A stretch of 64,000 nt of DNA from an uncultured virus (IMG/VR IMGVR_UViG_2061766007_001638) (Duplodnaviria; Heunggongvirae; Uroviricota; Caudoviricetes). The translations under genes and the position numbers were made by a program. The notes beneath the pieces were generated by a model. It saw only the letters and a program-made list of their open reading frames with translations, had not been told where the DNA came from and ran no database searches. This document shows positions 3,021-55,052 of the stretch, in pieces; within the stretch, counting starts at the first letter, position 1; the number at the start of each line of letters is the position of its first letter. Location: the IMG/VR virus record IMGVR_UViG_2061766007_001638. The stretch is one strand, 5' to 3'.

Positions 3021-5408
3021 CACGCCCGCCGAATTGACTTGACAAAGAGAAAACCATTTGGTATAATGGAGCCATGAAAGGAAAACAACCCATGAAAAAG
3101 ATTACGATGTCCGAGTTCAACGCATATCCCGAGTTCATGCACAATGGCGTGTTGTCCATTGAAATCGGGGGAAAGATTTATTCAAAGCAGGGCGTTTACA
3201 ACCTTCTCGTGGCCATGGGGATGATTGTGGATTAAACTTGACAGAAGGAAAACGGTTTGGTATAATATAGGCACAACGAAACAAAAGGAAAAAGAAAATG
3301 AAAGAGACGTTCAAGTACAAGTTTTTTGGGGATTGCGGCTTCATTGACGATTTCTACAATGATTCCATTCCAGTTGAGCGCATTACTAAACTGGAAATCA
3401 AAAACGAAAACATGGCGATTTCCGTCAATTTGACCGATTCCGAGGTGAAGGAAACCGTTTCAAAACTTCTCACGAACTTTTCGCCCGATGAGGTAATTGA
3501 CATTCTTGCCGACATTATCCACGAAAAGAAACAGAATGGCTAATGGCGAGGGGCGAAAGCCCCGCGCCGACTTTCGGAAATTATAGCAACGCTGGCGATT
3601 TCCGTCAAGTTATTTCCAATGGTAATTGATTTGACAAACGACTTGTCTTTTGGTATAATTGAGGCATGAAAGGAAAACAAGCCATGCGCGAAAACTGGAT
3701 TCTTGAGACGATAGAGAACATGAAAAAGACTGCGGAACGGGACAACTCCATGCCGTCCGAGTTCAAGGCGGGATATATCCAGGCATTGAAGAACATCCTT
3801 TTTGTGGCGACCGAGAAGTAATTGGCTTGACAAGTCTCCCGAAGTATGGTATAATAGAGGCATAAGGAGAAACCCATGAGAATCAAACACTTCGCTGGTT
3901 ATGGTTGCGTGAACGCAAAGAAGGTAAAGAGAACGGATGATACACTTGTCGTCCATGTGTGGGGAAACCATGAACGCGGAATATATCGGAATGACTATTA
4001 CGATATTTTCAACTGGCTCGTCAAGCGGTTTGACAAAACGCGTAATGACTATTTTCNNNNNNNNNNNNNNNNNNNNNNNNNNGGAGTATTGGGAAGACGG
4101 CAAGCCATGCGGAACCGACCACTGTATCTACACCATAACTTTCAGAAACTAACAGGAAATAAGCAAAAAAGCGAAAAACAGGCTGGCCCCCTATGGGGGC
4201 CACGCCTTTTTGTTTTCGNNNNNNNNNNNNNNNNNNNNNNNNNNNAAGTTATTTCCTTCTGTCTTTTAATTTGACCGAAGCCTTGTCTTTTGGCATGAAA
4301 GGAAACAAACCCATGATTACGATGTCAGATGGAAACAATACGATTCAAGTCACGCCCGCGCAGGCGTATCAGGCGATTCTTGACGGATACCTCCCCGTGT
4401 GAATTGTCTTGACAAGAGCGAAACGGTTTGGTATAATAGAGGCATAAAGGAAAACGAGAAAGGAAAAACCCATGAACGAACCCACCACCTACACCTATCT
4501 CCTCAAAATCAAAATTGACGGGGGAGCCGCATTTCAGAAAACCCGCGTAATGAGCATCCGCGCCCGTGGGTACGAGTATGCGGTGGATGAGGCATTTGAA
4601 AAACTGTACAACGAGTTTTCGGGAGTTGTCGCCTTCTTCAATGTGGTAGACTGGAAGCGCATCTAATCGGGAATTGAANNNNNNNNNNCACAGGCACAGG
4701 CAGGAATGATTCAACCGCGCATCGGTCGCTACGGCATCTGCGGATATGATGTAATTGTCAAGGGTCTTGAATGTATCCTCTTTCGCACGAAGAGGTTGGC
4801 GCGTAGGTGGATGGAAGCGCATGGATATGAAATCGTAGGGGAATGAAAGGAGAAACAGGAAATGGAAAAAATCATCATCAGTTTAATTTTCGCGTGGGCA
4901 ATCCTCTTTATCGTGGACAAGAAGTGATTGACTTGACAGGCCGACAGAAGTCTGGTATAATAGAGGCATGAAAGGAAATCAACCCATGATAAATCCCGCG
5001 ATGAAAACTCGGCTTCAAGAAGTAAGCGAACTTTCCGTACTTAGCAAAAGCATAATTGCGGATTTACTGGTCGAACTGGAAACGCTTTCCAAAATGTCGG
5101 CCCCCGCCAGAATAGACTTTGAAAGCAAGTTTTACTTTGCCCTTGAAAAGTACGTCCAGTACAGCATAGAGGCATTTGACTTGACAAACAGGAAGTAATC
5201 TGGTATAATAGAGGCATAAAGGAAAACGAGAAAGGAAAAACCCATGAACGNNNNNNNNNNCTGGTATAATTGGAGGGGGGCACAGGTTTTCTGTTTCGGA
5301 AAATTATATCGAATCGGGGGAGTTTTGTCAAGTCAATTCATTGTCGGCATTTGATTTGACAAGATGATTGCCTTTTGGTATAATTGAGGCATGAAAGGAA
5401 ATCAAACA

Positions 5409-9682: not shown

Positions 9683-11170
9683 GGCGTAGGATTTCATGGG
9701 TGGCTGGCCCCGACCTTTCACGGGGCCAGCCTTTTTCGTTTTCGGAAAATTATAGCGGAACTTCCCATTCCCGTCAAGTTATTTCCACCCATGAATTGAC
9801 TTGACAGGGCTTGGATTTTTTGGTATAATTGGGGCATGAAAGGAAATCCCATGAACATCGCTGAAAAACTGGAAAACCTCGCCATGACGCCCGATGACTG
9901 GGGAGTGTACAATTCACTTGTTGATTCCGACACTTACAGGAAAACCGTGAATCTCTACCAAAAGCGCGAGTTTGCCAAACTTCCACAGTGCAATGTCGCT
10001 TTCGGCATCTGCATCTACTATTGCGGAGGACACTGCACGAGAAAGAAGGAATGGTGCAGGCATCAGTCGGGGAATTGACTTGACAACCAAGCAACCATTT
10101 GGTATAATAGAAGCATGAAAGGAAACAAGCCCATGACGATGAAAGACCTCTGTGCGGAAATCAGCGGATTCGCGGGAATCGCATCCAGTATTTCCAAGAA
10201 ATACGATGTGAACATATACTTGAAGGACATCCGTGACGAGGACGAGAACCCAATTGCCCCGAATATCGTAATCGGATATTCGGGAACGGACGAAAAGAAA
10301 AATACGGATTTCAACTGGGCGTTTGAGGACTTGCAGAAAATCCTCGTCCTCAACGGATTTGTCATGTACTACGAGTGCTCTGGTGACGGGGACAACGAAA
10401 TCCTAATGTCATACAGGGTCAGTTGAATTGACTTGACAGGGGTCTGTGATTTTGGTATAATGGAAGCATGAAAGGAAAACCCATGAACGCAAGAACGATT
10501 GTTTTTGAAGGCAAGGAATATCCCGCGAGGGAAGTGGAAGTCAAGGGCTTTGGAGCGGTTATCGTATCCGTCACTAGTCTGAACACAAAGTTGGTGGACA
10601 TGAACGGAATCCCGATTTCCCAAGAAGCGGAAAATATAGACGATGGCATCTTTTTCTTCTTGGAAGACTCTGAAATTGTCCTTTCAGACGAGGAAATAGA
10701 AAAGATTATCCTTGAAAACATTTGATTTGACAGGGGTCTGTGATTTTGGTATAATGGAGGCACAAGGAGAAAAACCCATGAAAGTAAGCGAAGTCGGATT
10801 TGTCTATTCTGAGCATTACAGGCGCGATGACCTCGGGCGCGAAGCCGCGATTCGTTCCATTGGAGGTGACGGCACGAATGTGATTGCGAAGTTCTACTGG
10901 GACAAGGGTCACGCGGCAGGAGCGGAGTGGCATTGGGTCACGGACAACGGAATCATCATCGTGACGAATGTCAACAAGAATGGCGGGAAACTGGTCTGCA
11001 CGAAACTCATCGCACGCCCACAACAACTTTTGAGGTACACCCAAATGGGAATCCCCAACGAACTGGACGAAAAGACGAAGCGCATGAGGAACTGGATTAT
11101 GCCGCAGCGCCTAGTGGGTTTGGCGAGGGTTCACCAGTCAAAGGGTCTGAATCTTTCGTAAACGATTTAC

Positions 11171-13067: not shown

Positions 13068-13514
13068 ATGAGAATCAACAAGACAACCACCGAGTACATC
13101 AAGGGTCTCGTCCGCGCCAAGGCGCAGCCCAAGGTTGACGCGCTAAACGCCACTCTTGAAAAGGTCAAGGCGAAGGACACCTCTCTCCGTGCCGCCTTCA
13201 AGGCCGAGATTGACAAGTTGAAGGAGAAGGCGACTGCCGATGCAATCCGTCTCGCAAAGAAGTTCAAGATTGACGTTTTCCACTACACGAACTGGCGAAA
13301 CGAGTTGGACGAGAGGAAAGTCAGCGTGGACTTCAGCGACTTCACGGAGGATAGCACCTTCACACCGAACAAGACCGAAATTGAGAAAATCGAGTCTCAG
13401 ATTGAGGAACTTGACAAAAAAATCGAGAAGAAGTGCACCGAGGTAATCGCACGCCTTTCCCTTGGCGGGACTGCCGCAGACCTTGACCGCCTCATCGCGG
13501 AACTCAAGTTCTAA
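13068..13514 (+). CDS. Coiled-coil hypothetical protein
   Basis: SD-led ORF with biased codon usage, followed by a hairpin. Confidence 0.75.
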   Translation: MRINKTTTEYIKGLVRAKAQPKVDALNATLEKVKAKDTSLRAAFKAEIDKLKEKATADAIRLAKKFKIDVFHYTNWRNELDERKVSVDFSDFTEDSTFTPNKTEIEKIESQIEELDKKIEKKCTEVIARLSLGGTAADLDRLIAELKF

Positions 13515-13627
13515 TCTCCCTCGCGGGCGGGAGGGAAGTCCTCCCGTCCGCGTTATGCAAGAGCGGGGATTTGACTTGACTGGGGTCTGGGTTTTTGGTA
13601 TAATGGAGCCATGAAAGGAAAACAACA

Positions 13628-22793: not shown

Positions 22794-22862
22794 GTGTGGA
22801 TAGTTTAATGGTAGAACTTTCGGCTACTCCCGAATGTGCGGGTTCGACCCCCGCTCCACACT
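22794..22862 (+). ncRNA. tRNA-like RNA with 6-nt anticodon loop (CTACTC), no CCA
   Basis: GTGTGGA/TCCACAC acceptor, D-arm GTTTAATGGTAGAAC, TTCGG/CCGAA stem, T-arm GCGGG-TTCGACC-CCCGC. Confidence 0.7.
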
Positions 22863-38440: not shown

Positions 38441-39134
38441 GGAAGTCGTTCTCGCCAACTCCGCGTGCGTGACCGACGGAGACAGGATTGGGATAGTCCT
38501 CAGCCTGTACGTCAGGAACGAAAACGGAAAGTCCTCCTTCAGGGGGGCCTGTGCAAAATGGGACTCTTCTGAAGGATGGGCATGGACGGTTCGGGGCCTG
38601 CAGAATCTGGAGCCAGCTGGAAAGTTCAACCTTTCCTCGCTTGGAATGGAAAACGGATTTTCAGGACTGGCGGTAGTTGACAAGGGAACGACGCTCCTGA
38701 ACTTCAACGCGGCGAAGTATTTCGACAGGCTCCTCAAGAGGGCCAAGCCCCTGGAGGAATTCGAGAAGAGGAACGAGACGCTGAGCGGAAGCTTCAGGTT
38801 CGAGCTCGACTTCGAAGGAAGGGGCCTGTCGGAAATCCCAGGCGGATGGAACGTGTCGCAGGTGAAGAAGAGGCCCAGGGCCAAGAAAAAAATCATATAC
38901 TGAGGGCCTGGTTTTCCTGGAAAAAAGAGCCCGAGAAAGTTTTCTGTAAATAGGAAATGACATCATGAGAAACAATTCAAAAGAGCAACTTAGACCAGCC
39001 AGCATAGCTACACGCTGTGTACTGGACGGCTTTGCGCCTTCGAGTTGATTCTCCAATGCCGTCCATGGAAACTTTTAAGGAATCGACCAGGAATTAACTT
39101 GACGGGTCGGTTCCTTTTTGGTATAATATTGGAC

Positions 39135-39570
39135 ATGAAGCTCCAGTGCTGGGTCTGGAGGGTAAAATGAAAACCCGTAGCTCTTTGACAATTGAACTGA
39201 TTTGGAAACTGCGGATGCACATTGGTCCGCGAGTCGTCACGGCGACTATAAACAGGTATCAGGCCGTGAGCGGCGACCTGGCAAAGGGGTCTGTGGAAAA
39301 AGGGCCTCAGACCAGGTGCGCGTTACGCTTTGGGCGGACGGGAAGATGGGAGACAAAACCATACCTGAAACACTGCCGAAATGGAATAACTGAAGAAAGA
39401 ACAGACGTGGCAAGGTCCGCGTGGCCAGCAGTGGTTCCAGTCGGTGCCCGTACCGTCACCGAAAATGCTTGTGGGTGAGGGTTCCTTTAGACGTAAAGTT
39501 GAACCTGGCATGGGGATATACGCCTCGGGTCCTCTAGAAGGATATGGCTCCCCGAAATTAACCCTCGCGC
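39135..39570 (+). ncRNA. Candidate large structured ncRNA heading the tRNA operon
   Basis: Sigma70 promoter 39099-39127, no SD-led ORF, many hairpins, long-range pairing GTGAGGGTT/AACCCTCGC. Confidence 0.5.
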
Positions 39571-40279: not shown

Positions 40280-40353
40280 TGGGGCTTCGCATAAAAGCAG
40301 TGCACTGGCCTTTGAAGCCAAGGGAGATGGAGCGTTACCATCAGCCCCAACCA
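40280..40353 (+). tRNA. tRNA-Gln(UUG), atypical T-loop AGCGTTA
   Basis: TGGC-CTTTGAA-GCCA, TGGGGCT/AGCCCCA, ACCA. Confidence 0.85.
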
Positions 40354-40389
40354 AGGGGCCTGGCATTTTGGGGCCTGGAATTTCCAGAA

Positions 40390-40466
40390 TCCATCGTGGC
40401 GCAACTGGCAGTCGCGGAAAGCTCAAACCTTTCATGTTGTGGGTTCGAATCCCGCCGATGGAACCA
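40390..40466 (+). tRNA. tRNA-Leu(CAA), short variable loop
   Basis: GAAAG-CTCAAAC-CTTTC, ACCA. Confidence 0.88.
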
Positions 40467-40544
40467 CCCCAAGTAGCCCAATTGGCAGCAGGCAGGGGAC
40501 TTAAAATCCCCAAAGTGTGGGTCCGAATCCCATCTTGGGGACCA
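40467..40544 (+). tRNA. tRNA-Leu(UAA), short variable loop
   Basis: GGGGA-CTTAAAA-TCCCC, ACCA. Confidence 0.88.
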
Positions 40545-40546
40545 AT

Positions 40547-40621
40547 GCTGGCGTGGCAGAACGGCTATGCACCGACCTCGTAAGTCGGAGGATGAGGTCT
40601 CGGAATCCTCCGCCAGCTCCA
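40547..40621 (+). tRNA. tRNA-Thr(CGU)
   Basis: CCGAC-CTCGTAA-GTCGG, TCCA. Confidence 0.85.
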
Positions 40622-40630
40622 AAAACATCT

Positions 40631-40729
40631 TTGCCAATGGTGAAAAGCTGGATATACACACCCTCATTGGGGAGGGCGCAGGAGGCGAGAGCCCTGCAGT
40701 GCGGTGGTTGCATCCCGCTTGGCAGACCA
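40631..40729 (+). ncRNA. tRNA-like RNA, 6-nt anticodon loop, long variable arm, ACCA end
   Basis: TTGCCAA/TTGGCAG, CCCTC-ATTGGG-GAGGG, GCAGG/CCTGC arm. Confidence 0.65.
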
Positions 40730-40733
40730 ATAT

Positions 40734-40820
40734 GGGAGAAGAACCTGGTTCGAATCCAGGCTTGGGCGAATCCTGAAATACGGTGATGTGCCTGGTCGTC
40801 TATTAGGCAGGACGTCTCCC
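40734..40820 (+). ncRNA. Circularly permuted tRNA-like RNA (YrlA-type topology)
   Basis: Order GGGAGA, T-arm CCTGG-TTCGAAT-CCAGG, looped acceptor, D-arm GTC-TATTAGGCAG-GAC, TCTCCC. Confidence 0.7.
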
Positions 40821-40827
40821 TTTAAAT

Positions 40828-40902
40828 ATTCCCATAGCTCAACGGAAGAGCGCATGGCTACGAACCATGAGGCTGGGGGTTCGAGTCCCTCTGGGAATGC
40901 CA
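40828..40902 (+). tRNA. tRNA-Arg(ACG)
   Basis: CATGG-CTACGAA-CCATG, GCCA. Confidence 0.92.
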
Positions 40903-40934
40903 AAGATGTTTTATTCGACTTTATTTTGATTTAT

Positions 40935-41062
40935 TCGGGCGTGGCGAAATGGTAGCCGCAGGGGACTGTCGGTCTATAGTTAAATGGTAGAATGCAATCA
41001 TGAGAATGGCTGCGATTCTGGTTCAATTCCAGATAGACCGTCCATAATCCCCCGCCGCAAGG
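40935..41062 (+). tRNA. Interrupted tRNA-Asn(GUU) with nested tRNA-like insert at 40970-41044; 3' end lost at N gap
   Basis: GGGGA-CTGT[75-nt insert]TAA-TCCCC restores CTGTTAA. Confidence 0.7.
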
Positions 41063-41104
41063 NNNNNNNNNNNGTGGATTCGAATTTGGTAAATATTAAC
41101 AGTT

Positions 41105-41914
41105 ATGAAACACTTTATTATCTATCAAATTCGAAACAAATTAAACGGAATGATATATGTTGGAAAACATATGACCGAGGACCTAGATGACGGATATATG
41201 GGTTCTGGATTAAGAATACGAAGAGCCATTGAGAAATATGGGATTGATAACTTCGAAAAAACAGTCCTACATGAATGTGCGTCTGAGCAGGAAATGGACG
41301 ATATGGAGGCTGTAATAGTAAACGAGGATTTCATTTCCAGAGATGATGTCTACAATATTATTCCTGGTGGTCTTGGTGGATTTTAGCATGTGAATGAATC
41401 TGGATTGAACATATATCCGAATTGGATTTCGATAGACAAGAGAAATAAAGACCTATTTGAGAAAACTGGAAAATATCCATCTTCTGGATGGCAATCTAGA
41501 ATGAGAGACAAAAACCCAGAAAAATATGAAAAATTTAGAAAAAATCTCTCTAATTCAATAAAACAGCACATCAAGGAGTATGGCTCGGTTTGGTCTGGGA
41601 GAAAACATTCAGATGAAACGAAACGAAAAATGCGAGATATGCATAAAAAGAACCATTATCAGGCTGGAAACAGAAATTCCCAATACGGAACCGTATGCAT
41701 GTTCAACGAAACCATTCGAAAAACGAGACGTGTGAAACCAGACGAAATCTAGAAGTATTTGGAAAGTGGATGGAAGAAGGGAGCGGTATACAACTGGGAT
41801 AGATTCTTTTCAAGACAAAAAGAATCCAAAAATTTTAAAAGGAATGACGACGTGAAGAATCCCATTGGGGTCGCAACTGTACTGGACCGATGGCCGTCGC
41901 AAGACGGTGCATAA
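41105..41914 (+). CDS. GIY-YIG homing endonuclease with NUMOD3-like motif; two in-frame TAG
   Basis: IYQIRN..NG.IYVGKH...DGYMGSG, YN...GG.GG, KHSDETKRKM; frame stays open across TAG 41384 and 41750 to TAA 41912. Confidence 0.85.
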
Positions 41915-42279: not shown

Positions 42280-43209
42280 ATGAAAAATTATCAATGTGTA
42301 TGCGGGAAATCTTTCTCTAATGGCCGTTCTTTACAGAGTCATGAAAGATGTTGCAAAGAATACAAGAAATCAAAAGAATTAAAACAGCTTGAACTTTTAC
42401 GGGAAAGAGAATCAAAACGTCTTCCAAATGGGATGTTTGTCTGTGAAAATCCAAGATGCAAGAAAGAACATGATGGAAGTTACGGGTCTGGTAGATTTTG
42501 TTCGGATTCGTGTAGGAGGTCTTTTAACGCTCAGCAAAACAATTTTGAGCATATTCGTATCAAAAGAATCGAATATATAAATAAAAATCCTTCTGCAAGA
42601 AGTCCGCATGGAACCTGGAAATGCAAAAATTGTGATTTAATTTTTAATACAAGACAGGAACTTTTTGCTCATAACAAAGAGATTCATCCACACAAAGGAA
42701 CTTCTTGGAACAAAGGACTGACAAAGTATACAGACAAACGTGTTGCCGAAAACGCAAAGAATGTTTCAAAATCAATGAAAGAACGAAGTAAACTTGGATT
42801 ATTAAACAAATGGTTTAGTAAAGATGGATGGACCGATGAAATGAGAAAAAGATTCTCTGATATGAAAAAGAAATTATATATGGAACATCCAGAAAAACAT
42901 CCAAATAGAAAATTGGCAAATAACAAGCACAAAATGACATATCCAGAAAAAGTTGCCTTTGAATGGTTAACAGAACATAACATAAAATTTGTTAATCAAT
43001 ATAAATTAGTCTTAGAGGGAAATGCACGTTATGTTGATTTTCTTGTTAACAATAACATAATAATAGAAATAGACGGTGAGTTTTGGCATCCAATTGGAAA
43101 CAAAAATGATTTTTGCAAGGATGAACTAGCTAAAAAACATGGATATGTAACATACAGAATAAGGGCATCAGAACGAATAATTGATAAATTACAAGAAATT
43201 TTTGGATAA
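42280..43209 (+). CDS. Zinc-finger + DUF559/Vsr-like endonuclease (free-standing homing-type)
   Basis: CxC/CxxC fingers, HDGSYGSGRFCS, WNKGLTK, TYPEK...YVDF...IEIDGEFWH; AT-rich relative to flanks. Confidence 0.8.
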   Translation: MKNYQCVCGKSFSNGRSLQSHERCCKEYKKSKELKQLELLRERESKRLPNGMFVCENPRCKKEHDGSYGSGRFCSDSCRRSFNAQQNNFEHIRIKRIEYINKNPSARSPHGTWKCKNCDLIFNTRQELFAHNKEIHPHKGTSWNKGLTKYTDKRVAENAKNVSKSMKERSKLGLLNKWFSKDGWTDEMRKRFSDMKKKLYMEHPEKHPNRKLANNKHKMTYPEKVAFEWLTEHNIKFVNQYKLVLEGNARYVDFLVNNNIIIEIDGEFWHPIGNKNDFCKDELAKKHGYVTYRIRASERIIDKLQEIFG

Positions 43210-45273: not shown

Positions 45274-46543
45274 ACTTTCCAGGTTATCAGAATCACAGGA
45301 TGTGCCTCGACTATTTCCTGGAATAAGATTTGACGTTTCCTCATGGAAACATTTTTTGAAAAATGTGACATTTTGACACNNNNNNNNNNNNNNNNNNNNN
45401 NNNNNNNNNNNNNNNNNNNNNGAATTTATTCAATTTTTATTTCGTATAATATTCATGAGAGCGGGACTAAGTAGTAAAAAACAAACAAAAAAGAAAAAAC
45501 GCGGAGCTAAAATCCACAAAAAGCCAAATNNNNNNNNNNNNNNNNNNNNNNNNNNNNNNNNNNNNNNNNNNNNNNNNNNNNNNNNNNNNNNNNNNNNNNN
45601 NNNNNNNNNNNNNNNNNNNNNNNNNNNNNNNATTTCCCGCTCAAAAAAGCACTTTTAAAGTAAAAAACAAGTCCCCTCCAAGAATTCGACCAGTTTTCGT
45701 CTTTCCCGTGGAATTGACTTGACGGAGGTTCCTCTGTTTGGTATAATATATGGCACAAAGGAAAAACAAAAAGGAGAAGAGAAAATGGACTGGTATGGAA
45801 ACAACGGCTTCAGGTGCGTGAATCTCCACGAGAACGAATACGGGGAAGAGGTCTGCAGGTACACGGACTGTCCGTGCGGCTGTTTCTCAAGGAGGGAATG
45901 CTCCTTCTCGGACTGCTTCGACGGGATTCCTGGGGAGTTTGACTGAAAGACGGACTTGGAAGAAAGAAAGAGAGAAATTAAAATGGAAGAAAACGGAAAA
46001 GGGATGGAAAAGCGGATTGAGTTCGCGGGGAAATGCGAGGAGCTCGCGGAGTTGGGGAGGGAAGTCCCGAGCGGGGGATGGGACGTCCCGATGAACTTCA
46101 TCGTGGACTCTCTCAGGAACTGGGCGAAGTGCTATCGGATGCCGCCCAGGAACATTGGATGAGGGAGAGGGAAGCGCATGGAAAGGGATTTGGAGAAAAA
46201 GAGATTCGAAATGGCGTCGATGCTTGGGTGGGCGCTGTTCGTGAAGTTCCTCAAGTTCCTGGCGGCGGCTGGGGCGGTGTTCCTCCTGANNNNNNNNNNN
46301 NNNNNNNNNNNNNNGCTGGAAATTCCGTCCAGGGGGTCAGGATTTCCCCCTCGGACTTCAGGTGAAGGAGGAGGGGAACGTGGATATGGAACTAGTCCTT
46401 TCCCGCGAAAGGATGGAGGCTTATGGGGCGTCCTGGTGACTGAATATGGTTTTCTTCTGGATTTGACTTGACTGGTCTTCGGACCTTTGGTATAATATTG
46501 GCACATTTTGGTTCTTTGGCAATTGAGGTTTTTCTTAAAAGGA

Positions 46544-46689
46544 GTTCCCGTAGCTCAAAGGAAGAGCAGGAGCCTTCGTCGGGGTCGTTCAAGCAGGACG
46601 TCCAGCACTATCTGGAAAATCCGAGTTCGAGTCTCGGACCTGGCACCGTAAGCTTCTGGTTGGAGGTTCGAGTCCTCTCGGGAATGCCA
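46544..46689 (+). tRNA. Interrupted tRNA-Arg (UCU, or UCG with a 1-nt shifted junction) with nested tRNA-like insert at 46578-46648
   Basis: GTTCCCG/CGGGAAT-GCCA, GGAGC-CTTC[71 nt]TAA-GCTTC, complete outer D and T arms. Confidence 0.85.
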
Positions 46690-46698
46690 ATTTGCGAT

Positions 46699-46773
46699 TG
46701 GTCCATGGTGAAACAGACATCACGGAATCCTCCTAAGATTCAATTTCGGGTGCGATTCCCGATGGACCAACCA
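46699..46773 (+). tRNA. tRNA-Arg(CCU)
   Basis: GAATC-CTCCTAA-GATTC, TGGTCCA/TGGACCA, ACCA. Confidence 0.88.
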
Positions 46774-48350: not shown

Positions 48351-48425
48351 GGCCGCTTCGTATAGTGGTTATTATCGCAGACTCTTAATCTNNNNNNNNN
48401 NNNNNNNNNNNNNNNNNNNNNNNNN
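48351..48425 (+). tRNA. tRNA-Lys(CUU), 3' half in gap
   Basis: GCAGA-CTCTTAA-TCT. Confidence 0.75.
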
Positions 48426-48509
48426 NNNNNNNNNNNNNNNNNNNNNNNNNNNACGGCTGGGGAGGTTCGAGTCCTCCGCTGGGATTCCATGTATAATATT
48501 AAAAGCAAG

Positions 48510-48648
48510 GCAAGATTGGCAGAGAAGTTATGCGCCACCCTTCCCGTGGAATAGTTCAAGCAGAACGCCACAAAGGAAATCTTGGTTCAAGTCCAAGTTC
48601 CGCGACCAAAGGTGGTTTACGCCGATGCGAGTTCGGCATCTTGCTCCA
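48510..48648 (+). tRNA. Interrupted tRNA-Gly(UCC) with nested tRNA-like insert at 48545-48608
   Basis: GCAAGAT/ATCTTGC-TCCA, CCACC-CTTCC[64 nt ending ACCA]AA-GGTGG. Confidence 0.88.
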
Positions 48649-51720: not shown

Positions 51721-51838
51721 GGCTTGATACTCAGGTAACTGGTCCTGGCCCGTGGTGAAACGGGTTCCCTGACATTGATGGGCTTGTCGACCGCCCGTCG
51801 GGGAGACAGCGGAGTCGATATCCGCAAGACAGCCACCA
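51721..51838 (+). ncRNA. tRNA-like RNA, 6-nt loop, very long variable arm, ACCA
   Basis: CCCGT-GGTGAA-ACGGG, TCCCTGAC/GTCGGGGA arm, GCGGA-GTCGATA-TCCGC. Confidence 0.55.
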
Positions 51839-51985
51839 ATTNNNNNNNNNNNNNNNTGATAATGTCTTCAGTTTATTGCAATAGACAAAAAGACATTGGA
51901 AGATGGCCAACAGAACACCTTCTATGAATCCATGGTTAGTAGAGGGAGACCCGTGGTTCGATTCCACGATGACCCGACCATTTAC

Positions 51986-52060
51986 GGGCCGATAATTCAA
52001 CGGTAGAATACTTCACTGGCAGTGAAGATATGCAGGTNNNNNNNNNNNNNNNNNNNNNNN
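51986..52060 (+). tRNA. tRNA-Ala(GGC), 3' end in gap
   Basis: CTTCA-CTGGCAG-TGAAG. Confidence 0.75.
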
Positions 52061-52227: not shown

Positions 52228-52301
52228 GGGCCGCTAGTTCAATAGTAGAACACCTCGTTCGCAACGAGGAGACTTCGGAGCGTTACCGAACGTGTCCACC
52301 A
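52228..52301 (+). tRNA. tRNA-Ala(CGC), imperfect acceptor, atypical T-loop
   Basis: CCTCG-TTCGCAA-CGAGG, G3:U70, ACCA. Confidence 0.75.
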
Positions 52302-53936: not shown

Positions 53937-54209
53937 TCTGGAATCATTCAGACATGAAACTTGAAAGCATAGACCCAGAGCTCTTCTCGCTTGAACTCTA
54001 CAACCCGAACGGACTCCACGAGCTGGACGTGGCCCTTTGCATAGCGGCATCAATCGGATACTGCGACGCGTCCCGCCTACTCGTCCGCCCGAAAGAGGGG
54101 GAAGTTGCGCTGATGATTGAATGGGAGGACGGGTCGAAGTACTGGTGCCACGCGAACATGGACATTCTCGATTCAATCAGGGAATGGCTTGCGAGAAGGA
54201 GGTCGTGAC

Positions 54210-55052
54210 ATGGGATACACTTTCAGGAGAACCAGCGGAAACTCGTGGGACACGCATTCCCCGAGCTACGGGAAGAATACGGAAAGGAAGGTCCTTTTCG
54301 ACGGAATAACCTGGGAGATAACCCTCAGGGAGGTCATGTTCTCCATCCTTATTCTCGGGATGTTCGCGTTTTTGGGATTCCTCGTCCATTCTGCGATAGA
54401 CAAGAAAGTTGACGATTCCACCCTCAAGTACAGACAGGCCGTCTCGATACAGGACGAAGGCGAGTTCCGACACGCGATGGACACCGACGTGGGGAACGCT
54501 TTCGTAAGGGGTAAGGTCGAGGCGGTAACTCCAGTCAAGACGAAACTGGTGAAGGGCGAATATCTCAGGATTCACGTTGACCACCAGAAGTACAGGATGC
54601 ACACGAGGGTGGTGACGTACACGACTTACGACTCGAAGGGCCGTCCCCACGTCCACCACAGGACGGTCACGTATTGGTCGTGGGACACCGTGAATTCGTT
54701 CACAACGAACTCCCAGGAGGTCGTGTTCTGCGGCTCGAAGTTCAAGTACGACAAGTTCGAATATTCCTGTGCGAATACGGACGAGACGATAGTCGGAGGG
54801 GGAACGTTTAATAACGAAAGAGACGTCGTGTATACCACGAAGGACGGGTTCACTGGAACGATTTTCGCGGACCTTCGGAACGGAAGCGTGACTGGAAGAC
54901 CGACGATGGTCGGAAGAGGGATAGAGAAGTACAGGGAAAGCCTAGAGAAGTGCACCTGGCCGTACGTCCTTTTCTGGATACTGTGGATTGTGCTGACTGT
55001 TGTCGCGATAGTACTGTTCTACATAATAGACAACAGATGGCTGGAAGGATGA
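54210..55052 (+). CDS. Two-TM membrane protein downstream of LemA
   Basis: EITLRE..FSI TM, Y..HTRVVTY....G....TVTYWSWD, C-terminal TM FY.IDNRWLE. Confidence 0.75.
   Translation: MGYTFRRTSGNSWDTHSPSYGKNTERKVLFDGITWEITLREVMFSILILGMFAFLGFLVHSAIDKKVDDSTLKYRQAVSIQDEGEFRHAMDTDVGNAFVRGKVEAVTPVKTKLVKGEYLRIHVDHQKYRMHTRVVTYTTYDSKGRPHVHHRTVTYWSWDTVNSFTTNSQEVVFCGSKFKYDKFEYSCANTDETIVGGGTFNNERDVVYTTKDGFTGTIFADLRNGSVTGRPTMVGRGIEKYRESLEKCTWPYVLFWILWIVLTVVAIVLFYIIDNRWLEG

Follow-up and report, generated by a model that had tools for sequence, protein, structure and literature searches.

Three tRNA genes of this uncultured rumen phage are split within the anticodon loop by short inserts that are themselves shaped like tRNAs, and in every case the exact limits of the inserted DNA are the opening base of an acceptor stem and the final base of an N-CCA tail (N-CCG once). 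Alleles that lack the insert were found for two of the three loci (Asn and Gly). Together with four inserts of 44-85 nt found in other viral records, the three inserts of 64-75 nt in the window (the whole 64,000-nt stretch of DNA analysed here) make seven inserts in four phage lineages. Our preferred, though tentative, reading of these data is that the inserts belong to one family of small mobile elements built like the upper half of a tRNA, which would act as introns in the anticodon loops of phage tRNA genes.

The first of the split genes is a tRNA-Asn(GUU) gene at 40935-41062 on the + strand, as are all loci of the window described below unless stated otherwise, and its anticodon loop is interrupted by a 75-nt tRNA look-alike at 40970-41044. 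The 5' exon (40935-40969, nt 1-35 of the tRNA) contains the acceptor strand TCGGGCG from 40935, the D arm, the anticodon stem GGGGA and the start of the loop, CTGT, and ends with anticodon bases G34 and U35. The 3' exon resumes at U36, and its visible 18 nt (41045-41062) read TAA-TCCCC-CGCCGCAAGG before a run of 11 N. Insert 1, which was recognised by ARAGORN, by the Rfam tRNA model and by its absence from relatives, begins and ends CGGTCTA...TAGACCG-T-CCA and consists of a 71-nt body, U73 and CCA, the U-CCA tail being counted within the 75 nt. ARAGORN reads its 75 bases as a perfect 7-bp acceptor stem, a 5-bp T arm with the loop TTCAATT, and a defective anticodon arm that has an A.C mismatch in the stem, an 8-nt loop and a four-base 'anticodon', gaga. 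Against Rfam tRNA (RF00005) it scores 41.6 bits (gathering score 29; E 7e-8, 221 bases searched), with model position 1 at 40970, position 71 at the discriminator, 41041, and the CCA at 41042-41044. The arm of a functional decoder, with its 5-bp anticodon stem, 7-nt loop, U33 and 3-nt anticodon, is not found in insert 1, and 'mimic', the label that the first-pass annotation had given this element, is a fair one since its anticodon arm is unable to decode normally. The same annotation had described a nested tRNA-Asn(GUU) with a 75-nt mimic, as well as an inner element with a perfect 7-bp acceptor stem and T arm but a malformed anticodon arm; on the nesting the sequence, ARAGORN, Rfam and independent contigs all agree, and ARAGORN draws the inner arms in the same way.

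The limits of insert 1 can be read from related phages. A 19-mer from the Asn 5' exon was used to find relatives in metagenome contigs and retrieved four loci, L160-L163, one of which (L161) is unrelated while the other three are syntenic tRNA arrays of related phages. All three arrays contain an uninterrupted 84-nt tRNA-Asn(GUU) gene (L160 2985-3068, L162 1827-1910, L163 1148-1231) with the loop CTGTTAA, called Asn(gtt) by ARAGORN, and the exons of the window are identical to these genes at 35/35 and 18/18 bases. Because the relatives' gene without an insert has identical exons, insert 1 is exactly 40970-41044; it sits between anticodon bases 35 and 36, with no target duplication. An Asp(GUC) parse of the outer gene had been weighed against Asn(GUU) in the earlier reading, and it falls away because the relatives' intact gene reads Asn, so that the preferred identity stands. 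The Asn(GUU) gene of this phage group is unusual for Asn in its length of 84 nt and its 13-nt variable arm.

Nested tRNA genes could in principle be created during assembly, when tRNA genes with words in common are joined into a chimera. The scaffold of the window is interrupted by 43 N runs of 10-963 nt, including one at 41063-41073, and tRNA T arms do cause cross-joins in read laying, where they are seen as short-sided joints. We nevertheless consider an artefact of this kind highly improbable. The region is present in two runs from one bovine gut sample (X1 and X2), probably its source, and in part in other studies, none of the runs that contain it being an RNA run; independent Logan contigs from both runs reproduce the nesting over 40300-41062 with 0 differences, and a 188-nt contig from another study (X4) extends over 40800-40987, across the exon/insert junction, with 7 differences. 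Clean empty-site alleles exist, and the same architecture occurs in unrelated IMG/VR contigs, both of which argue against a chimeric origin.

Two further split tRNA genes, Arg(UCU) and Gly(UCC), lie in the window beyond the one noted earlier and were found with Rfam and with ARAGORN allowing introns. The tRNA-Arg(UCU) gene is made up of a 5' exon at 46544-46577, insert 2, a 71-nt tRNA-shaped element, at 46578-46648, and a 3' exon with encoded CCA at 46649-46689, and the Rfam tRNA model scores 45.2 bits over the locus 46544-46689, across insert 2. The insert, delimited from Rfam and its fold, pairs at six of seven acceptor positions, has a 6-nt 'anticodon' loop and ends in the tail A-CCG; on its own it scores 26.9 bits, which is under the gathering score of 29. 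A promoter-like TTTGGTATAAT is found at 46486-46496, about 50 nt upstream of this gene. In the tRNA-Gly(UCC) gene, the 5' exon (48510-48544) and the 3' exon with encoded CCA (48609-48648), both supported by ARAGORN and by a contig join, flank insert 3, a 64-nt tRNA-shaped element at 48545-48608 (CGTGGAA...TTCCGCG-A-CCA) with 7/7 acceptor pairs, no anticodon arm and the tail A-CCA, which alone reaches 39.9 bits and is above the gathering score. The outer Gly gene has an odd T loop, TGCGAGT. The minimum free energy fold of the whole Gly locus is a cloverleaf within a cloverleaf, and without their inserts the Arg and Gly exons give clean cloverleaves. Inserts 2 and 3 have a D-arm-like GTTCAAGCAGRAC in common and canonical T loops, and on all three inserts the Rfam tRNA model places position 1 on the first inserted base and position 71 three before the last.

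The Gly insert is also defined by DNA without it, as one contig each in X1 and X2 joins 48544 directly to 48609 and skips exactly these 64 nt, which start with CG and end with CA; the cut position is unambiguous (both = 0, side 35). ARAGORN calls the gene at 48510-48648 SeC(tca) with a 64-nt intron, a candidate that we rejected because the loop without the insert reads CTTCCAA, which makes the gene tRNA-Gly(UCC) and not a UGA reader. The Gly insert is retained in a related strain of higher depth, which differs over 143 nt at 10 positions and by one gap; among the five strain changes listed, 48602 G>A converts an acceptor-stem U.G pair of insert 3 to U-A. The X4 study contains 46600-46750, within the Arg locus and beyond, with 1 difference. 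The split Arg, Gly and Asn loci are real and persist across strains.

The end of the outer Asn gene falls into the scaffold gap at 41063-41073, an N run without strand that the first-pass annotation had suspected of being under-sized. In both X1 and X2 the contig over 40300-41062 has 12 extra letters past 41062 and the contig over 41074-44575 has 44 extra letters ahead of 41074; the flanking contigs thus run into the gap from both sides, and because of these overhangs the true gap is larger than 11 nt, as suspected. Provided that the contig ends overlap by under one assembly word, which we take to be 31 for Logan, the gap measures at least about 26 nt, and its size leaves space for the 31 nt of the Asn gene that are missing here and that it is expected to hide. 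In the relatives, the gene continues with TTTGGTGGTTCGAGTCCACTCGCCCGAGCCA, through the 13-nt variable arm and a normal T arm to its 3' end (GGTGG-TTCGAGT-CCACT-CGCCCGA-G-CCA), the missing part being 31 nt long, and the outer end CGCCCGA-G-CCA that had been predicted for this gene is found in them exactly. The 12-letter overhang stops exactly 30 nt beyond the CCA|TAA junction, from which we infer a break of the word graph at a point where another variant shares the 3' exon without the insert. The sequence after the gap, GTGGATTCG before AATTTGG, differs from the relatives' CGCCCGAGCC before AATTTGG, and it is therefore possible that the Asn gene of this strain was truncated, and its 3' acceptor strand lost, at the insertion of the endonuclease gene that follows.

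All three split genes belong to a dense + strand tRNA array at 39.5-53.3 kb, in which ARAGORN finds 32 genes by default and 35 with introns allowed. The array holds more tRNAs than counted because pieces of tRNAs abut N gaps: the T arm and 3' end of a further tRNA lie at 48453-48500, after the N gap at 48392-48452, and the 5' half of another, with the loop CTGGCAG, at 51986-52037, before the gap at 52038. We set aside, as an apparent false call spanning a gap, the 'Thr(agt)' with a 165-nt intron that ARAGORN places at 51739-51980. Rfam found tRNAs at 40280-40350, 52229-52298 and the outer Gly gene, 48510-48648, that default ARAGORN missed; the T loops AGCGTTA and TGCGAGT of these Rfam-only tRNAs and their D loops without GG may represent a covarying D-loop/T-loop variant. 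Far from the array, a free-standing tRNA-like gene at 22794-22862 (+) has the 6-nt anticodon loop CTACTC and no encoded CCA, which makes it a non-decoding tRNA mimic of the sort seen in the inserts. Upstream of the array's first tRNA (39577), and downstream of a promoter-like TTTGGTATAAT at 39117, Rfam matches a Pistol ribozyme at 39232-39295 (+; 37.9 bits against a gathering score of 34.5, E 5e-4); this ribozyme may trim the 5' end of the tRNA precursor. The extended -10-like word TTTGGTATAAT occurs in 97 copies at no more than one mismatch against 0.57 expected, almost all on the + strand and mostly within 1-36000, at roughly one per small gene. For 91 of the 94 + strand window ORFs scanned, no Pfam family was matched. 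An alternative code with TGA as a sense codon was considered and rejected: it opens many frames, of which the long ones are antisense without Pfam matches, and the + strand reads well in table 11.

The same rule is found in other viral lineages. We searched IMG/VR with a pattern made of a T loop, 11 nt, CCA, 13-26 nt and a second T loop, which matched at least 123 loci, and applied a deletion test to these loci in which each of 45,500 brute-force deletions was scored with ARAGORN; both controls from the window were recovered. At three loci among the matches listed, a deletion from base 1 of an acceptor stem with 7/7 pairs to the end of N-CCA restores a canonical tRNA with a 7-nt loop. These inserts are 44 nt in a tRNA-Ile(UAU) gene (L170, record G003), 45 nt in a tRNA-Gln(UUG) gene (L184, record G002, with the same element on a second contig as L304, record G004) and 85 nt in another tRNA-Gln(UUG) gene that ARAGORN had named Glu(UUC) (L272, record G001). 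The 155.7-kb record that holds L272 has a second split gene, in which a 59-nt insert at 2701-2759 interrupts a tRNA-Ile(UAU) that ARAGORN names SeC; the T-like hairpin of this insert is non-canonical. The T loop and the CCA of L170, L184 and L272 were demanded by the search pattern, and the acceptor pairing, the flush ends and the 7-nt outer loops were not.

What all seven inserts have in common is only an acceptor stem, with 7/7 pairs in six of them and 6/7 in one, an adjoining hairpin, and the N-CCA tail (CCG once). Their D and anticodon arms are degenerate or absent, the anticodon loops being of 8 nt, of 6 nt or missing, and the inserts of 44 and 45 nt (L170, L184) consist of the acceptor stem, a linker, the T arm and N-CCA only, with no D or anticodon arm. 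The decoding half of the tRNA is dispensable in the inserts, and the top half and the tail are conserved. An acceptor stem with a T-arm-like hairpin and a 3' NCCA tail is the minimal substrate of bacterial RNase P, and all seven inserts have the anatomy of such a minihelix as predicted from their sequences and folds.

Most pattern matches are of another kind. In 101 of the 123 matches listed, the tRNA called by ARAGORN ends at the CCA of the pattern and an orphan T-arm element stands 13-26 nt beyond it; removing the called tRNA gives a spanning outer gene in two of these 101 (L165 and L210), with irregular anticodon loops and boundaries that are not flush. Among the 123 matches listed (L164-L286), 41 T-arm elements carry a CCA where the 3' end of a tRNA would place it, and in 25 an acceptor-like stem is contained within the element itself, 10 of the latter ending in CCA. 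We rejected these elements as nested genes: they do not repeat the 3' end of the tRNA before them, and no acceptor partner occurs upstream of that tRNA above control level. Searches with the motif GTTCAAGCAGRACGYC of inserts 2 and 3 gave 119 loci with a tRNA in none, and GTTCAAGCAGRACGYC combined with a T loop gave 40 loci with no nested case. AAAGGAA followed by a T loop and CCA gave 31 loci, mostly class II tRNAs and apparent tmRNA ends, and the only nested genes among them are L304 and L289, the latter sharing a contig with L184. IMG/VR gave 0 matches to exact words of the Asn locus and no relatives of the protein that flanks the tRNA array (54117-55052). In GenBank phages, blastn with the Asn region matched only neighbouring tRNA-Arg and endonuclease genes, and blastn with the Arg and Gly loci gave no match. 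Hairpin-only inserts of 22 nt were seen in the anticodon loops of tRNA-Thr genes, at 9712-9808 in G002 (L326) and at 3187-3283 and 13476-13573 (L329) in G004.

In order to explain how a split gene could yield a tRNA, we tentatively favour the view that the insert is a mobile intron which would be excised as though it were a tRNA, with the outer halves religated afterwards, a proposal to which we assign not quite an even chance. The insert would fold independently within the precursor RNA and be treated as a tRNA, RNase P would cut at its 5' end and leave the 5' exon with a 3'-OH, and an endonuclease that depends on the host would cut directly after CCA and release the 3' exon. Enzymes that cut right after CCA are known in Thermotoga-type RNase Z and E. 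coli RNase BN. The outer halves would stay paired through the outer acceptor, D, anticodon and T stems, and an RNA ligase acting on 3'-OH and 5'-phosphate ends, which are the ends joined by ligases of the T4 Rnl1 kind, would seal them into tRNA-Asn, tRNA-Arg and tRNA-Gly with normal 7-nt loops. In favour of this view we count the exact limits of the Asn and Gly inserts, the end-to-end alignment of the Rfam tRNA model, the 7-nt outer loops restored in the other lineages, the shared top half, the nested fold and the stem-preserving change at the Gly locus, the lack of a second gene called for the same anticodon in the window, G001, G002 and G003, and the promoter-like word upstream of the split Arg gene. 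More speculatively, free-standing homing endonucleases encoded nearby might aid spread at the DNA level, with the insert interrupting their target. The tail of insert 2, CCG instead of CCA, counts against excision by end processing, as do the odd T loop of the outer Gly gene and the gap over the 3' end of the outer Asn gene. A Pfam search of 102 window ORFs (table 11) gave only endonuclease and DUF matches and no RNA ligase or tRNA-processing gene, 20 further window frames in table 4, judged antisense, had no Pfam match, and G001-G004, all of them incomplete records, gave nothing for PF09414, PF09511 or PF01139, the PF09511 control being silent.

The limits of the inserts, from base 1 to CCA, are also the ends of a mature RNA, as retro-insertion would give. 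The split tRNAs might accordingly be dead genes, inactivated and never spliced, in which the inserts are scars of an accident at the RNA level or of another insertion process; a mature CCA-ended tRNA-like RNA would have been ligated into a nicked anticodon loop, reverse-copied and recombined into the phage. T-arm elements after phage tRNAs, including the 25 with their own stem and the 10 that end in CCA among the 123 matches listed, are a possible source pool for such RNAs, intron-less alleles circulate within the same community, the CCG tail of insert 2 could be decay, and no ligase or splicing gene was found among the window ORFs or in G001-G004. We regard this explanation as unlikely, although it deserves to be taken seriously. 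The Asn exons are identical to the intact orthologues at 53/53 bases and the Arg and Gly exons form clean cloverleaves, which speaks against inactivated genes, and the Gly insert has persisted through divergence with a change that preserves its stem. On the DNA examined (window, G001, G002 and G003) no second gene was called for the anticodon of a split gene, although N gaps in the window do conceal pieces of further tRNAs. No reverse transcriptase was seen in the window with Pfam, and standalone copies of inserts 1-3 are absent from the window and from the relatives.

The inserts could, on the other hand, be true introns that are removed by a dedicated endonuclease and ligase, of phage or host, which recognise the outer tRNA body or the junction and in which RNase P has no part; the tRNA shape might then serve to insulate the folding of the insert, to protect from a homing endonuclease or to act as a decoy RNA. 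This we think rather doubtful. It leaves unexplained why the limits of seven out of seven inserts match acceptor base 1 and a CCA-type end to the base, and a candidate enzyme was not found in the window or in G001-G004. Homing endonuclease genes do adjoin split genes in the window, G002 and G003, yet such genes are common in phage tRNA clusters anyway. Inserts of other designs speak for it and against excision by end processing: the 22-nt hairpins of G002 and G004 and the Lak megaphage introns, which have a 5' hairpin and no CCA, occupy this loop too, and RNase P alone could not set their limits, so that other machinery may remove all inserts.

The closest known precedent for the inserts is found in the Lak megaphages. 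In the literature searched, the sole relevant account, apart from its own preprint, is Devoto et al. 2019 (PMC6784885), which reports 'enigmatic' introns in the tRNAs of Lak phages and remarks that one 'may encode a tRNA'. Like the inserts of this study, the Lak introns are short anticodon-loop inserts that include a mini-tRNA or a part similar to a tRNA, vary in presence among related genomes, and belong to no known Rfam intron class (PMC6784885). They differ in construction, as judged from Table S6: a small 5' hairpin and an A-rich linker precede the mini-tRNA, whereas the inserts here have no leader; and in a comparison by eye they end ...acceptor-C-A without CCA, whereas the inserts here end in N-CCA or CCG. 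By the same source the Lak inserts lie after positions 36-40, compared with 34|35, 35|36 or 36|37 in our genes, and the G+C content of the phages is 26% for Lak against 46% here. Since our inserts start at acceptor base 1 and end in N-CCA or N-CCG, we rejected an identity with the Lak type, which has a 5' hairpin, a linker and no CCA. The Asn locus is one of three in the window and falls within a broader, so far undescribed variant of phage tRNA insert that obeys a simple rule.

A possible means of spread is suggested by the neighbourhood of the Asn gene. About 60 nt downstream of it lies a free-standing homing endonuclease gene (41105-41752), in which a GIY-YIG part at 41105-41386 (PF01541, 26.5 bits against a cut-off of 22.6) is followed by a NUMOD3 part at 41390-41752 (20.7 bits), and blastn matches it to phage homing endonucleases. 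An in-frame TAG at 41384-41386 separates the two parts and may point to a broken gene or to read-through. The records G001 and G002 contain tRNA(CUA) genes, labelled 'Pyl' by ARAGORN. Insert 1 and the GIY-YIG gene are both in the window and both missing from L160, L162 and L163; a further relative, X3, stops precisely at 40969 and is hardly covered over the endonuclease gene, and in X4 the Asn junction is present at low depth with the endonuclease uncovered. Elsewhere, the split gene of G002 is followed after 58 nt by the start of a weak HNH-like ORF (E 0.0047, below cut-off), and that of G003 is preceded, at a distance of about 280 nt, by a clear GIY-YIG gene. The idea that the insert interrupts the endonuclease target and was co-converted with the endonuclease gene is a lead only. 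In phage T4 the SegB endonuclease sits in a tRNA cluster, and 'collaborative homing' pairs an intron with a free-standing endonuclease; a GIY-YIG gene in a tRNA array adjoining a split Asn gene resembles both, although the Arg and Gly split genes have no neighbour that Pfam recognises as an endonuclease. A second endonuclease-like ORF of the array (42280-43209, +), with weak zinc-finger and DUF559 matches below cut-offs, is present in X3 at about 98% identity.

Other classes of intron and of embedded tRNA share single features with the inserts. Group I introns in bacterial and phage tRNAs are similar in their anticodon-loop location, patchy distribution and association with homing endonucleases, but they are over 200 nt long with a conserved catalytic fold, compared with 44-85 nt here, and we rejected this class since the window inserts are of 64-75 nt and match only the tRNA model in Rfam, with no group I match at E up to 10. 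Archaeal and eukaryal tRNA introns are likewise short anticodon-loop inserts, and their removal depends on protein and is followed by ligation; they rely on a bulge-helix-bulge motif, a splicing endonuclease and an RtcB-type ligase. In place of that motif, with its two 3-nt bulges and 4-bp helix, the junction between the outer anticodon stem and the acceptor stem of the insert is an asymmetric internal loop of 4-5 x 6-7 nt, which led us to discard this candidate also. Extended -10 promoters and encoded CCA tails give the setting here a bacterial character. A tRNA fold within a longer transcript is cut out by RNase P and a 3' endonuclease in mitochondrial tRNA punctuation and in the mascRNA of MALAT1. 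There, however, the flanks stay unjoined, whereas a usable product here needs religation in the anticodon loop.

To our knowledge, the introns of bacterial and phage tRNAs are thought to be self-splicing group I introns, and the short introns of Lak megaphages have been without explanation since 2019. Standard tRNA finders miss split genes of the present kind or misname them, turning Gly(UCC) into SeC(UCA) and Gln(UUG) into Glu(UUC), and such misnaming distorts inventories of phage tRNAs as well as inferences about suppressor tRNAs and recoding. The rule from acceptor base 1 to N-CCA, checked on natural empty sites, names candidate enzymes and exact cut sites. With some reserve, we raise the possibility that the inserts represent a third route of tRNA splicing, in which a mobile intron with a minihelix as its handle would borrow the universal end-trimming enzymes of tRNAs, and an RNA ligase to close the anticodon loop, and would spread with free-standing homing endonucleases or through an RNA intermediate joined into nicks in anticodon loops.
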